64,000 nt of DNA from contig JAWAXF010000003.1 of the NCBI GenBank assembly GCA_038897035.1, positions 64 to 64,063 of the forward strand. Direction: 5' to 3'. The stretch comes from Candidatus Bathyarchaeia archaeon (lineage in GTDB: Archaea > Thermoproteota > Bathyarchaeia > Bathyarchaeales > DTEX01). A program made the position numbers and the translations under genes. This document shows positions 2,967 through 40,151 of this stretch, one piece after another; within the stretch, counting starts at the first letter, position 1; every line of letters begins with the position of its first letter. Below the pieces are notes generated by a model that did not search any database, was not told the origin of the DNA, and was given only the letters and a program-made list of their open reading frames with translations.

Positions 2967-4454
2967 ATGGAAGGCGTTTCACTAAGAGAGAATTATGGTC
3001 GACTGAAACATTTTATTGATAATGAATATGTAGGGGCAGATGCCGACAAATATACTTTGTCTTACGATCCCGGTCTCGGGAAACCTATCGCTGAAGTGCC
3101 GATGTTATCATCAAGTGACGTTGATAGGGCGGTGCGCTCCGCTGCAGCCGCCTTCGATAGTTGGTCGAACTTGCCCATCTTTGATCGCCTCCAATATTTA
3201 GTTAAGCTAAAAATTCTAATGGAAGAAAATCTTGAGACTTTTGCTAGACTTATAGCGAGGAATGTTGGTAAGACGATAAGAGAAGGGCGTGCTGAGATAC
3301 GCAGAGCTATCGAGGCCGTTGATGCATCTTTAGGCGCACCTCATCTACTTATGCTAACTAGGAAGGTTATGAACTTAGCTAAGGCTGTACCAGAAATAGA
3401 CATGGAATGCATTAGGGAGCCACTAGGGGTCTTCGCGATAATATCTCCATTCAATTTCCCCATAATGATACCCATGTGGTTTGTTCCATGGGCAATAATC
3501 CTTGGAAATACTGTAGTAATAAAGCCTAGCTCGCTGGATCCTGTTCCAACAACCTTCTTTGTTGAATTGTTTAAGAAGGCTGGTTTCCCGCCAGGCGTAG
3601 TTAACCTCATTAATGGGACGGGGCCAGCTTCAGATGAGTTACTTAAGCATCCGGAGATAGCAGGAGTATGTTTTGTCGGCTCATCAACTGTCGGTGAAAG
3701 GGTTTATGCCACGGCATGCTCGCATGGCAAGAGGGCTGTATGCCAATGTAGCGCCAAGAATCCGGTTATCCTAATGCCGGATGCTGTTCCGGAACCCTCA
3801 ATTGAGAACATAGTCGGTGGTTTCTTCGATATGGCTGGCCAGCGCTGTTTGGCACCCGGCCTACTGATTACAGTTGGTGAGGCGTATGAAAAATTTGTTC
3901 ACGCAATTGTGGAAAGAACGAAGAGAGTTAAAGTGGGTTATCAACTGTTTGAGGATACTGACATGGGACCATTAGTGGCCGCAAAGGAGCGGGAGAGGGT
4001 TTCAGGAATGATTCAGAGAGCGATTGATGGGGGCGCTAAACCACTCCTCGATGGAAGAACCATCAAAGTTGCCGAGGAATACAATAATGGCTTTTTCCTA
4101 GGTCCAACAATTCTGGATGATGTTAAAAGAGGCATGGAGATAGAGCAGGAGGAAGTATTTGGGCCAGTTATGCCGATTGTGAGAGCTAAGGATTTTGAGG
4201 AGGCAATTGAAATAGCCAATAATAGGCAGTACGGCAATACTGGAACAATATATACGTCAAGTGGGAAATGGTTTAGGGAGTTTGCTAGACGCGTTAAGGC
4301 TGGCAATATAGCATGTAACATGGCTGTAGCGCAACCCCAGCAATACTTCCCATTCCCAGCGCGAAAAAGAAGCCACTATGGCCCCCTAACAGGACAAACT
4401 GGTGCAATAGACTTCTTCACGGACATGAAGGTGATAATGGCCAGATGGTGGTGA
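2967..4454 (+). CDS. NAD(P)-dependent aldehyde dehydrogenase, methylmalonate-semialdehyde dehydrogenase-like
   Basis: ALDH family motifs are present: FNFPIMIPMWFVPWAIILGNTVVIKPS, FVGSSTVGERVY, catalytic Cys context AGQRCLAPG, and EEVFGPVMPIV. ATG at 2967 is preceded by GGTGA; the ORF track starts at the TTG at 2952. Confidence 0.85.
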   Translation: MEGVSLRENYGRLKHFIDNEYVGADADKYTLSYDPGLGKPIAEVPMLSSSDVDRAVRSAAAAFDSWSNLPIFDRLQYLVKLKILMEENLETFARLIARNVGKTIREGRAEIRRAIEAVDASLGAPHLLMLTRKVMNLAKAVPEIDMECIREPLGVFAIISPFNFPIMIPMWFVPWAIILGNTVVIKPSSLDPVPTTFFVELFKKAGFPPGVVNLINGTGPASDELLKHPEIAGVCFVGSSTVGERVYATACSHGKRAVCQCSAKNPVILMPDAVPEPSIENIVGGFFDMAGQRCLAPGLLITVGEAYEKFVHAIVERTKRVKVGYQLFEDTDMGPLVAAKERERVSGMIQRAIDGGAKPLLDGRTIKVAEEYNNGFFLGPTILDDVKRGMEIEQEEVFGPVMPIVRAKDFEEAIEIANNRQYGNTGTIYTSSGKWFREFARRVKAGNIACNMAVAQPQQYFPFPARKRSHYGPLTGQTGAIDFFTDMKVIMARWW

Positions 4455-4832
4455 AAACACTAAATTTTCATCAACAAAAACTTTTTCAATATTATCAGTT
4501 CTTAGCTTCAGAAAATGTTCTGAAGAAAGTCTCTACACCAAAACTGCTATGTTTAAAATGGGTTAGCATATTCACGATCAGAGTCAAAGCGGCAGATCAT
4601 AAAAATAGAGTGAAATTCGACAGCTGGGAGGAGGGATAGGTCACTGCAGGTACTCATTATTTTCCTCAATATTTGTTAAAAAGTATATTTAGGAGATCGT
4701 TCTCTCCTTTTAGAGTGTCGGTTACTCCCGATCTGGGTTCAGCGATGGCTTTAAAGAAGGGCTTTAGATGTGTGGAATATAGGCGTAAGGATAAGTGCGG
4801 AGAAACGCAATTGCCTTCTAAAGTACTTAGTA

Positions 4833-28515: not shown

Positions 28516-28645
28516 CCAAACAGCATATTCACAATTTTCTCTTTTCTATAACATTCTCATCCCATCTCACATCATGATTAACATGCGCGTAATGCCTAAG
28601 ATAGCAGTTTCAAAATAGATAGGTTTAAATACTTGTTTATTCTTT

Positions 28646-30355
28646 GATGGAAGAAGAACTCTTACGTCCCTCTGAGGTTGCTAAGAAGTTCGATATTTCA
28701 GTTAAAACGCTTTGGAAGTGGCAGAAGAGGGGATTATTAGGGCAGTTAGGCTCCCAACTGGGAAGCTCCGATATCCTAAGAGTGAGATTATGGAAGCAGT
28801 TAAAAGCTACAGGATCCCAGTAGAAGCACCGAGAGATTTAATCGAAGAATACTTCAAAGTTAAGCAGAAGGCTTTAGACGCAATCTTCTCACATGTTAAA
28901 ATTTCTAAGAAGGCTCACCTTGAATTCGATAGAGAGGATAGGAAAAGGCTTAGAGATGAATTGCCTACGAGAGTGGAAATACTCCAAACACTACGTTGAT
29001 TCAGCAATAAGCTCTGTCATAGGGCTTGTTAAGGGCTGGATAACGCTCTACAATAGGGGGAAAGCTGAAGGTAAGCCTGAGATAACTAAAAGAGCAGTCT
29101 ACATCAAGAGCACTCTTTTCAGCTTCAGAAACGGGTTCTGAAGATAAGCATTGAACCGAATAAACGTTATCTTGAGGTTGATTTAACAAAGTATCCTTGG
29201 GTTCGCGGAGATTTCGATGGGATTGGAGGGTTGATTCTAACTGGGAGGGAGCTTATAGTAACGGTTAAGAAGAGCGTTGAGCCGAAGGCTGAGAAGTGGG
29301 CGTCATTTGACGTTAACTTAACGAATGTAACGGCATTCATAGATGGCGAGATTAAGCGCTATGACTTAAGAGAACTCTACCATATTCACAGAACCTATGA
29401 AAGTAAGCGGCAGAGTAAGCCTAATACATCAAAGATGCTCCTCAAGAAGTATTCTAATTCTTAATGGCTCGAAGGACATGAACCGAAAGCTATCAAAGTG
29501 GAACATAAGAACCTTCCAGTTCATGCTTGAATACACGCTTAAATGGCTTAACCTACCAGTAAAATACGTTAACTCAGCCAAATCATCTAAAACCTGCCCC
29601 AGTCTCTATAGAAAAAAATCTTTATATGTAGGCAGGTAGATGATAAATCTATGAACTCCTCGAAGGAATTAGCCTACATACTAGGCGTTTTAATGGGTGA
29701 TGGCTCGGTATACGAGAGAAAAAAAGAAGCACGAGTACGTCATAAAATTGAGAACGACTGAACGAGATTTTGCTGAAAGCTTTGCCCATGCGCTTGAAAA
29801 GCTCGGTATGAGACCTAGAATTGATATTGAAGATAGAAGCAAACACAATCCTAGATGGAAAATACAATATGTTGTTAGAGCTTTTTCGAAAACCTTTTAT
29901 GAATTTTACAAATCTTTATCGTCTAAGGATATAAAAGAGTTAATAAAAGGCTACGAACCCTATTTTTTAAGAGGATTTTACGAAAGTGAGGGGTTGTGCT
30001 ATGAAGGCAAAGGAACCATGAGTATACGTATATACAATTCGAATCTAACGCTGATAGATATTGCTTATGAAGCACTTACAAGGCTTGGATTTCACGTAGT
30101 GATTAAAGATAGGGGTTACCCAGGGGGCTAAGAAGAGGGCGTATGAAATAAGGATTAAAGGATGGAAGGAGAGTTTGAGGTTATCTTCTTAGTGAAACCA
30201 GTCATTAAAGTTCCGCAATGGATTAGCTCTGTTCAGGAAGCATGGCTTCCTATGGGGGGAGGCTGGTGAGATACAAAAAGTGCAGCCTCATAATGGATAG
30301 AGACATAGTAGCAGTATTAAACCTTCAGATGCGGGGAGAAGGGTTCCCCCAATGA
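28646..30355 (+). pseudogene. tnpB: tnpB (OrfB, RNA-guided endonuclease family) pseudogene with an N-terminal MerR-like HTH
   Basis: Pieces spread across frames are:
- LLRPSEVAKKFDISVKTLWKW / EGIIRAVRLPTGKLRYPKSEI (the HTH)
- YRIPVEAPRDLIEEYFKVKQKALD
- WKYSKHYVDSAISSVIGLVKGW
- WASFDVNLTNV (RuvC-I Asp)
- LNGSKDMNRKLSKWNIRTFQFMLEYTLKWLNLPVKYVNSAKSSKTCP
- SYGGRLVRYKKCSLIMDRDIVAVLNL (RuvC-III)
There are at least five frame changes. The region around the RuvC-II Glu is deleted, and the zinc finger is interrupted. Confidence 0.65.
29651..30192 (+). pseudogene. Double-motif LAGLIDADG homing endonuclease gene, twice frameshifted at homopolymers
   Basis: Motif 1 is ELAYILGVLMGDGSV and motif 2 is YFLRGFYESEGL, about 100 aa apart, as in monomeric I-DmoI-type enzymes. 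The frame changes in the A7 run at about 29718-29725 and in the G5 run at 30123-30127. After correction the tail reads GAKKRAYEIRIKGWKESLRLSS*. Confidence 0.7.
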
Positions 30356-30373
30356 GCTAATCGAGAGGGAAGG

Positions 30374-30414
30374 GTTAAGTAGAGGTAATGAAATACCATC
30401 TATCTCTACTTAAC
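30374..30414 (+). repeat. Perfect 11-bp inverted repeat (hairpin) downstream of tnpB, candidate IS right-end / omega-RNA structure
   Basis: gttaagtagag (30374-30384) and ctctacttaac (30404-30414) are perfectly complementary, with a 19-nt loop. The hairpin starts 19 nt after the tnpB stop. Confidence 0.55.
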
Positions 30415-30518
30415 TCAGAACCCACCTTGTGATCACTAATAAAGCCTTTTATTATAGTTCTGCTTGGCGGTTTTCTTAGTCGAGCTGAGAATTTAAAGTG
30501 GATTTGGACTTGTAGGAC

Positions 30519-30596
30519 TGGTGGGGTCGCCAGGATTTGAACCTGGGTCACGAGGGCCCAAGCCTCGTAGCCTAGACCAAGCTAGCCGACGACCCC
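30519..30596 (-). tRNA. tRNA-Pro (anticodon UGG), no intron, CCA encoded
   Basis: The manual cloverleaf has acceptor GGGGUCG/CGACCCC, D stem GGCU/GGCU (two G-U pairs), anticodon arm CGAGG-CUUGGGC-CCUCG, T arm CCAGG-UUCAAAU-CCUGG, and discriminator A followed by CCA. Confidence 0.85.
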
Positions 30597-40072: not shown

Positions 40073-40151
40073 GGGGCCGTGGTCGAGCCTGGTCTAAGAT
40101 GCGCGCCTGGGGCGTGCGTGGTCGTGGGTTCAAATCCCACCGGCCCCACCA
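40073..40151 (+). tRNA. tRNA-Pro (anticodon GGG), no intron, CCA encoded
   Basis: The cloverleaf has acceptor GGGGCCG/CGGCCCC, anticodon arm CGCGC-CUGGGGC-GUGCG, variable loop UGGUC, T arm GUGGG-UUCAAAU-CCCAC, and discriminator A followed by CCA. Confidence 0.9.

Follow-up and report, generated by a model that had tools for sequence, protein, structure and literature searches.

A homing-endonuclease cassette probably specialised on the zinc-knuckle sequence of archaeal IS607 tnpB genes

The window analyzed here is a stretch of 64,000 nucleotides from a Candidatus Bathyarchaeia archaeon (positions 64 to 64,063 of contig JAWAXF010000003.1 in assembly GCA_038897035.1), and positions given without a locus name refer to it. 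On its plus strand lies a decayed insertion sequence (IS) assigned to the IS607 family, and the tnpB gene of this element, which belongs to the transposon-encoded RNA-guided nucleases, is interrupted by a 626-bp insert (29601-30226, +) with a LAGLIDADG homing-endonuclease gene. We consider it probable that the insert is a free-standing cassette encoding an I-DmoI-like, monomeric, two-motif enzyme, and that its lineage has specialised on the DNA of the first zinc knuckle (T-C-P-x-C-G-G) of IS607 tnpB genes in thermophilic archaea. The original prediction, which was made from the letters of the window, had placed a LAGLIDADG gene within the CPxC codons of tnpB, and this was borne out together with its coordinates, both motifs and two frameshifts at A7 and G5. 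The view that one mobile element parasitises another also holds, since the insert lies in tnpB and relatives occupy the same site.

The limits of the cassette follow from the tnpB reading frame and from a comparison with alleles that have no insert. The tnpB frame ends with …NSAKSSKTCP at base 29600 and picks up again at 30227 with LCSGSMASYGGRLVRYKKCSLIMDRD…GFPQ and a stop (in full LCSGSMASYGGRLVRYKKCSLIMDRDIVAVLNLQMRGEGFPQ), and the cassette splits the first CxxC knuckle as …SSKTCP / LCSGSM…KKC…DRD. When the two tnpB halves were joined in silico, the zinc-finger domain Cas12f1-like_TNB of Pfam was recovered (E=1.3e-12). The endonuclease open reading frame (ORF; 29651-30223, +) was assigned by Pfam, by alignments to the related locus L009 and the homologs P0003-P0005, and by a profile match to I-DmoI. 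After frameshift correction it matches Pfam LAGLIDADG_3 with E=3.2e-20, above the curated cut-off, and has two LAGLIDADG motifs, ILGVLMGDGS and FLRGFYESEGL, each ending in a catalytic acidic residue; the Asp of GDG and the Glu of ESEG are invariant across the family alignment. The family profile matches I-DmoI with E=2.9e-8. For the fold, the intact homolog P0004 was modelled with AF2 in place of the window pseudogene (pLDDT 87), and the best PDB matches in a Foldseek search were I-DmoI (E=6e-9, TM 0.70), with the double-domain alpha-beta-beta-alpha-beta-beta-alpha fold.

The window gene itself is a pseudogene member of the family. Three frameshift sites were found, at A7 (29719-29725), before G5 (30123-30127) and as a 1-nt deletion at 30182/30183, and a 16-nt deletion at about 30223/30224, on the 3' junction, has removed the stop codon. 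The third frameshift and the 16-nt deletion were exposed by alignment to L009, the closest relative (67% nucleotide identity). The claim that the ORF has its own ATG and stop is thus true of the relatives, while the stop of the window copy is lost. The N-terminal helix-turn-helix (HTH) domain of full-length relatives is also missing from the window ORF. A CTCT at both junctions and a 9-bp inverted repeat, to which attention had been drawn earlier, are present but deserve no weight: the CTCT is indistinguishable from chance (shuffle test of window junction similarity, p≈0.27), and about 0.2 such inverted-repeat pairs are expected by our own estimate. No further copies of the cassette were found within the window.

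A protein search with the repaired endonuclease detected 14 relatives. A match with 99% identity (P0001) represents the window locus itself, present in three metagenome assemblies (L001-L003). At about 50% identity, intact genes of 254-260 amino acids (P0003-P0005) lie inside IS607 elements with the gene order tnpA, tnpB-N (325-347 amino acids), endonuclease and tnpB-C (98-99 amino acids). In these hosts tnpB ends with …TSS(S/T)CP and resumes with (K)CGGEMIKLRKGQVVKCTKC…DRQ, at the knuckle that is also split in the window, so that intact endonuclease copies exist at the very site proposed. Loci were gathered by scans of genome and metagenome collections and then by tblastn with TnpA, TnpB-N, TnpB-C and endonuclease queries. 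The endonuclease is flanked by tnpB in 13 of the 14 distinct loci where it is at least 42% identical to that of the window, namely the window locus W (the same as L001-L003), L004/L005, L006-L008, L009, L016, L017, L018, L019, L020, L021, L022, L023 and L040; only L025 departs from this, being a truncated fragment of the endonuclease. The junction is the first zinc knuckle wherever it is preserved, the 5' junction having been deleted in L016 and L018. Among the occupied lineages, the TnpB N-parts are 27-60% identical to each other and the endonucleases 42-70%, and from these low identities it follows that the association between the endonuclease and tnpB is old. Below about 41% identity, the homologs are free-standing HTH-LAGLIDADG genes that lie in unrelated contexts, including viral contigs, where some adjoin a putative structural, capsid-like gene.

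Uninterrupted alleles of the target are abundant. With the in-silico joined TnpB of L004 as a query, 410 TnpB homologs were obtained at E≤1e-20, and the best of them are full-length, uninterrupted proteins of 424-450 amino acids. P0015 (80% identity to the joined query over the full length, the highest value) and P0016 (75%) read through the site as …NTSSTCPICGGRMIKLRKGQVVKC… (…TCPICGGRM…); both come from metagenome 3300005801, in which the occupied locus L004 and the empty loci L044 and L045 were found together. The empty site of L044 has the sequence …AATACTTCTTCTACCTGTCCCATATGTGGAGGAAGAATGATAAAGC…, and when its DNA is aligned with L004, the insert is found to lie at the second Cys codon of CPxC or within it, exon 1 (the upstream tnpB part) ending with …TGCCCC and exon 2 (the downstream part) starting with NNNTGTGGAGG…. 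Among the top 120 TnpB clusters, two (P0017 and P0092) are N-terminal fragments of a gene split by LAGLIDADG. Five other entries, short or lacking the zinc finger, were read and none is split by an insert; P0106 and P0109 stop early after the knuckle and look like frameshifts, P0120 ends soon after it, apparently at a contig end, and P0078 is an N-terminally truncated read-through. Empty alleles therefore dominate among the homologs and coexist with occupied ones, and intact TnpB homologs read through this position without a native domain, contrary to one of the conditions named with the original prediction as refuting it.

Comparison between occupied copies suggests that the cassette has moved separately from the tnpB around it. 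Between L019 and L021, the insert is identical at 599 of 604 positions (99.2%), while the tnpB flanks are 87.6% (5') and 86.8% (3') identical (Fisher p=1.5e-19); the identity switches sharply at L019:1950 and 2554, and dS is 0.017 in the endonuclease gene versus 0.48 in tnpB exon 2. This pattern reads as a signature of homing. The same trend is seen between L017 and L019, with 93.6% in the insert versus 89.0% and 72.9% in the flanks. A second fossil composite, L016 (positions 3137-4531 of JAWBXL010000013.1, a Candidatus Bathyarchaeia metagenome-assembled genome), lies at a different genomic locus from the window copy and has separately lost its 5' junction and most of exon 2; its endonuclease part is 98.4% identical to that of the window, versus 81-88% for tnpB. 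Since the two share the endonuclease frameshifts, an already defective cassette was copied, which would be explained by gene conversion or by homing driven in trans. L004 looks recombinant, its exon 2 being 92% identical to that of L044 and its exon 1 only 79%. The ratio of nonsynonymous to synonymous substitution rates (dN/dS) of the endonuclease genes is 0.13 between L004 and L007 and about 0.2 within the L017 group, with an overall range of 0.13-0.23, which indicates purifying selection.

An old association and a selected ORF would also be expected if the LAGLIDADG sequence were a native or domesticated domain of the TnpB/IS607 lineage, such as a DNA-binding accessory, and no parasite. We regard this as very unlikely, because most close tnpB homologs have no insert, the endonuclease is a separate ORF that breaks its host gene and keeps the catalytic Asp and Glu, and the insert moves independently of its flanks. 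An intein, intact or degenerate, before the knuckle Cys is the least credible of the explanations and can practically be set aside. It would agree with the position of the insert directly ahead of a Cys codon or within it, given that inteins usually have this residue at +1, and with LAGLIDADG_3, a Pfam family typical of intein endonuclease domains; one source labels the homologs ‘intein-encoded endonuclease-like’. The intact copies, however, are out of frame with tnpB and have stop codons in its frame, and they possess their own ATG and an N-terminal HTH in place of Hint blocks. Pfam searches gave no Hint or intein domain, and there is no terminal His-Asn, the endonucleases ending with …KNVEEK, …REND or …SVIK. 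An ORF of 190-260 amino acids leaves no room for splicing blocks. The earlier opinion that the insert is not an intein is therefore upheld.

We propose the following course of events for the free-standing cassette. The endonuclease would be made from its own start codon, either off the tnpB transcript or, in the window lineage, from a TATA-like box of its own. Intact copies have Shine-Dalgarno-like sequences (GGAGGT/AGGTGA) and stop/start overlaps. In the window, the 5' leader of the cassette (29601-29650, +) has, on direct reading, an archaeal-type TATA-like box TTTATATG (29621-29628) that is preceded by an A-rich stretch and centred about 27 nt ahead of the ATG; by the known archaeal layout of B recognition element and TATA box, the leader may serve as a promoter. 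Its last 25 nt or so resemble the cassette leader and start of L022 and L040 (…TCTATGAA…). The endonuclease would then cut cassette-free tnpB within the conserved knuckle-coding sequence, the target site being placed from the insertion positions, and repair from an occupied copy would insert the cassette, empty targets being supplied by the numerous copies of the IS in one genome or in different ones. TnpA, the serine recombinase of IS607, would move the composite to new loci and hosts. With tnpB divided between its RuvC-II and RuvC-III regions and the zinc finger disrupted by the insertion, TnpB would probably be inactivated and the composite would decay. Decay is seen beside the insert as deletions in W, L016, L018, L040 and L021, and as an exon 2 frameshift that is identical in the three assemblies of L006-L008. 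The window and L016 copies are end-stage fossils.

Several points weigh against a free-standing cassette that simply destroys its host gene. The sample is about 14 loci, mostly on short metagenomic contigs. In several occupied elements (L004, L019 and L022) both the N- and the C-part of tnpB are still open, and stop/start overlaps of the types ATGA and TAATG link tnpB-N, endonuclease and tnpB-C, so that the split gene could still be used. The intact inserts measured are of three types, 768, 777 and 783 nt, all divisible by three. All uninterrupted alleles examined are predicted to form a stem-loop, and the insertion point falls in its internal loop of 5 nt, as is expected for an intron in a structured RNA. 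Finally, I-DmoI, the closest solved and characterised relative, is encoded by an archaeal rRNA intron of the bulge-helix-bulge (BHB) type. The stem-loop has an outer stem ACCUGYCCC/GGGRCAGGU and an inner hairpin GGAG…CUCC whose loop holds a conserved ATG; the stem strands lie at 29592-29600 and 30254-30262 in the window, with equivalents in L044, L045, L050, L053 and L007. These strands are in different reading frames in different lineages, and there is one compensatory synonymous pair, U-A in L044/L045 versus C-G in L007/L050/L053. The stem-loop may possibly be the 5' part of the omega RNA.

The open tnpB halves, the insert lengths, the stem-loop and the kinship with I-DmoI would fit an archaeal intron, either of the BHB type, which the tRNA-splicing endonuclease cuts, or of an unrecognised type, that carries the endonuclease gene and is spliced from the tnpB mRNA or omega-RNA precursor to restore TnpB; removal of the insert in silico does bring back the exact CPxC frame in W, L004, L007 and L022. 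We nevertheless think an intron unlikely. The BHB motif, with 3-nt bulges and a 4-bp helix, was searched in both arrangements, strictly in W, L004 and L007 and then by a relaxed, frame-constrained scan of W, L004, L007, L022 and L040; in neither scan was it found at consistent frame-preserving positions, and the hits were scattered with no common offset. A permissive Rfam cmscan (E-value ≤10 for the window region and ≤1 for six related loci) detected no group I, group II or other intron family. Its only hits, which were on the minus strand, were the tRNA-Pro next to the element and a chance miRNA match far below threshold (E=6.7). Thus neither a BHB motif nor a group I core was found at the junctions, whose examination had been recommended with the original prediction. 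The endonuclease ORF occupies nearly the whole insert and leaves at most about 50 nt non-coding. A clean restoration of frame is equally expected from simple insertion, and the divisibility by three is probably one ancestral state, kept since the ORF fills the insert, so that we give it no weight. In the most recently mobile lineage, L017/L019/L021, the T-C-P codons that are present in an uninterrupted protein of the Staphylothermus type (…NSTKTCPRCGGRM…) are missing, so that the finger could not be restored by splicing in this lineage. Combined with the own ATG and Shine-Dalgarno-like sequences of intact cassettes, the end of the tnpB frame 2-7 codons past the junction in the intact copies L004, L007 and L022, and the free-standing habit of the wider endonuclease family, this favours a free-standing cassette over an intron. 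The original prediction had allowed for both; that statement stands, and the evidence now leans to the former.

A different use of the same observations would be that the endonuclease gene is free-standing but the split tnpB remains functional, its fragments being translated by coupling and reassembling into an active or regulatory TnpB. The stop of tnpB-N overlaps the endonuclease ATG (ATGA) in L007, L022 and L040, and the endonuclease ORF ends in an overlap with a conserved ATG that is in frame with tnpB-C (ATGA/TAATG), with a GGAGG-like sequence upstream, in L004, L017-L021 and L018/L023. The dN/dS of tnpB-N is 0.13 between the occupied loci L017 and L019, and we considered this value as a proof of function after insertion and rejected it: the insert is younger than its flanks (dS 0.17 versus 0.44), and the low ratio can predate insertion. 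The conserved Met and the GGAGG-like sequence are found also in uninterrupted genes (…CGGRM…), and are thus native coding sequence and not an adaptation. Furthermore, the first knuckle is broken, reading CPxY or CPLL before a stop, and many occupied copies have tnpB deletions or frameshifts. Hence we assign a low probability to a functional split gene.

A related and likewise doubtful alternative would make the cassette a new archaeal intervening sequence in the internal loop of the stem-loop in the tnpB mRNA or omega-RNA precursor, either removed by a non-BHB route or bypassed via coupled translation of the two TnpB fragments. If so, the transposon would keep its RNA-guided nuclease while carrying a protein-guided homing nuclease, and, with a second LAGLIDADG family about 100 nt downstream, tnpB would be a multi-intron host like rRNA genes.

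This second family is unrelated to the first and was observed at L017:2264-3040 and L018:1072-1726, with no counterpart in the window. Its insertion site is between …YLRM and (W/C)GFP(P/Q)SPS; it has the motifs GLCATD… and YIAGAIDGDGNI, a C-terminal HTH and a Pfam LAGLIDADG_3 match of E=1.3e-7, and in L017 its frame continues into the tail of tnpB, while in L018 it is degraded. In exon 2 of L017, L019 and L021, and in the uninterrupted Staphylothermus marinus protein P0100, RuvC-III has NRQ instead of DRD or DRQ, which raises the question of whether TnpBs of this lineage would be catalytically active.

A direct repeat matching at 8 of 9 nt (TCAAGATRC) flanks the insert of L022 (3289-3297 and 4065-4073), with Tyr (TAC) in the 5' copy and Cys (TGC) in the 3' copy. 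A similar Tyr codon in place of Cys follows the junction in L004 and L040, and in the window it is shifted by one codon. The repeat may mark a short target duplication. A partial target duplication as a general feature was considered and dropped: when the first 20-50 nt of the insert were compared with the start of exon 2 by shuffled local alignment, the similarity was significant in L022 only (p≈0.012), and not in W (0.27), L004, L007 or L040.

The host element of the window was delimited approximately at 28592-30450 (+): similarity to L016 begins at 28592 and fades past about 30430. The tnpA remnant (28647-28800, +; frameshift near 28735) has been reduced to a MerR-type HTH, the resolvase catalytic domain being deleted. 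The N-terminal stretch MEEELLRPSEVAKKFDISVKTLWKWQKRG… was assigned to this HTH by Pfam HTH_17 (E=1.4e-8) and MerR (E=2.9e-6), and residues 3-48 of the remnant are 43-46% identical to the N-terminus of the serine-recombinase TnpA of L004, L007, L019 and L022. What appears to be an N-terminal HTH of TnpB is thus, by sequence similarity, the HTH of TnpA, and since it matches TnpA and not TnpB, the window element is best classed as an IS607 with a deleted resolvase domain. In the relatives L004, L006-L008, L017, L020, L022, L050 and L053, a tnpA with MerR HTH and resolvase domain is directly upstream of tnpB and overlaps it, while in the window the HTH remnant alone survives there. At L019:749-985, tnpA is reduced to its N-terminal HTH in the same way.

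The 5' part of tnpB (28800-29600, +) is a pseudogene that ends with …SSKTCP and was found in two frames by tblastn with the TnpB N-part of L004 (35-38% identity). Three-frame translation of 28560-30460 and tblastn show that the region of the RuvC-II Glu has been deleted, and the body of tnpB lies in alternating frames with at least four frame changes; neither a complete set of RuvC-I, -II and -III nor an intact ORF is present. The 3' part (30227-30355, +) is translated as LCSGSM…KKCSLIMDRDIVAVLNLQMRGEGFPQ up to the stop, contains the second Cys of the first knuckle, the equivalent of the second CxxC and the DRD motif of RuvC-III (30296-30304), and is 59% identical to the matching part of L009. 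The window copy is therefore a triple fossil, with tnpA, tnpB and the endonuclease gene all dead. A hairpin of 14 bp with 93% complementarity, found by a repeat search at 30374-30414 (+) 3' of the tnpB stop, probably belongs to the omega-RNA or right-end region of the IS. A tRNA-Pro(TGG) gene is located at 30519-30596 (-), about 70-100 bp past the presumed right end, and another tRNA-Pro(GGG) gene at 40073-40151 (+). Recent transposition of IS607 in the same archaeal communities is indicated by an uninterrupted 447-amino-acid TnpB (P0047) that is identical in L050, L051 and L052, with an intact tnpA, and whose flanks differ between L050 and L051; the L052 contig, at 1.9 kb, has too short a flank for this comparison.

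Among known systems, enzymes of the I-DmoI type (I-DmoI, I-PorI, I-ApeI) are most alike in sequence profile and fold. They are monomeric two-motif enzymes of about 190 amino acids whose motifs 1 and 2 contain Asp and Glu, respectively, and come from thermophilic archaea; archaeal rRNA introns of about 600 bp are also similar in size to the inserts of 626-783 bp. Their host gene, however, is an rRNA gene, whereas here it is the protein-coding nuclease gene of a transposon; no BHB motif was found here, the full-length members have an extra N-terminal HTH, and identity to I-DmoI is only 22-23%. Free-standing homing genes of phages and organelles, such as seg/mob of T4 and the rps3/atp6 ORFs of fungal mitochondria, are alike in that an autonomous ORF without ribozyme or intein is present or absent at a fixed site of a conserved gene, with mosaics of insert and flank and, here, free-standing relatives on viral contigs. 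The phage genes are usually intergenic and the fungal ones bring a replacement gene end, whereas in the present case the target gene is simply split, and is itself mobile and multicopy. IS607 elements with tnpA and tnpB are the host element of the cassette; the window copy no longer has the resolvase domain, a whole RuvC or an unbroken frame. Nested selfish elements in documented conflict are known from IStrons, in which a group I intron is combined with the tnpB of IS605/IS607 (bioRxiv 10.1101/2023.11.20.567912). In an IStron the IS lies within the ribozyme, which shields the host gene, whereas here the endonuclease gene is inside tnpB and no ribozyme is detectable. In the searchable literature, coverage of which is incomplete, we found reviews and the IStron work only and no description of a LAGLIDADG gene inside tnpB. 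The type of endonuclease and the logic of homing are known, while the target class, a transposon's RNA-guided nuclease gene, and the nesting in three layers appear to be new.

The homing-endonuclease genes known so far reside in introns, inteins and intergenic positions associated with conserved genes of hosts or phages, and the present loci would add a whole homing lineage specialised on a transposon's own nuclease gene. A split tnpB with an “intein-like endonuclease” in its middle can now be recognised in annotation. The intact relatives would be a source of thermostable I-DmoI-related enzymes with a defined, highly conserved candidate target of about 20 bp, which may be of practical use. 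The three layers, host genome, IS607 and endonuclease cassette, would bring together a protein-guided nuclease and the RNA-guided TnpB that it knocks out or coexists with. Since the target is multicopy and horizontally mobile, the usual limit that a homing gene exhausts its empty alleles would be lifted, and these archaeal elements may thus become a natural system for studying hyperparasitism and conflict among selfish elements.

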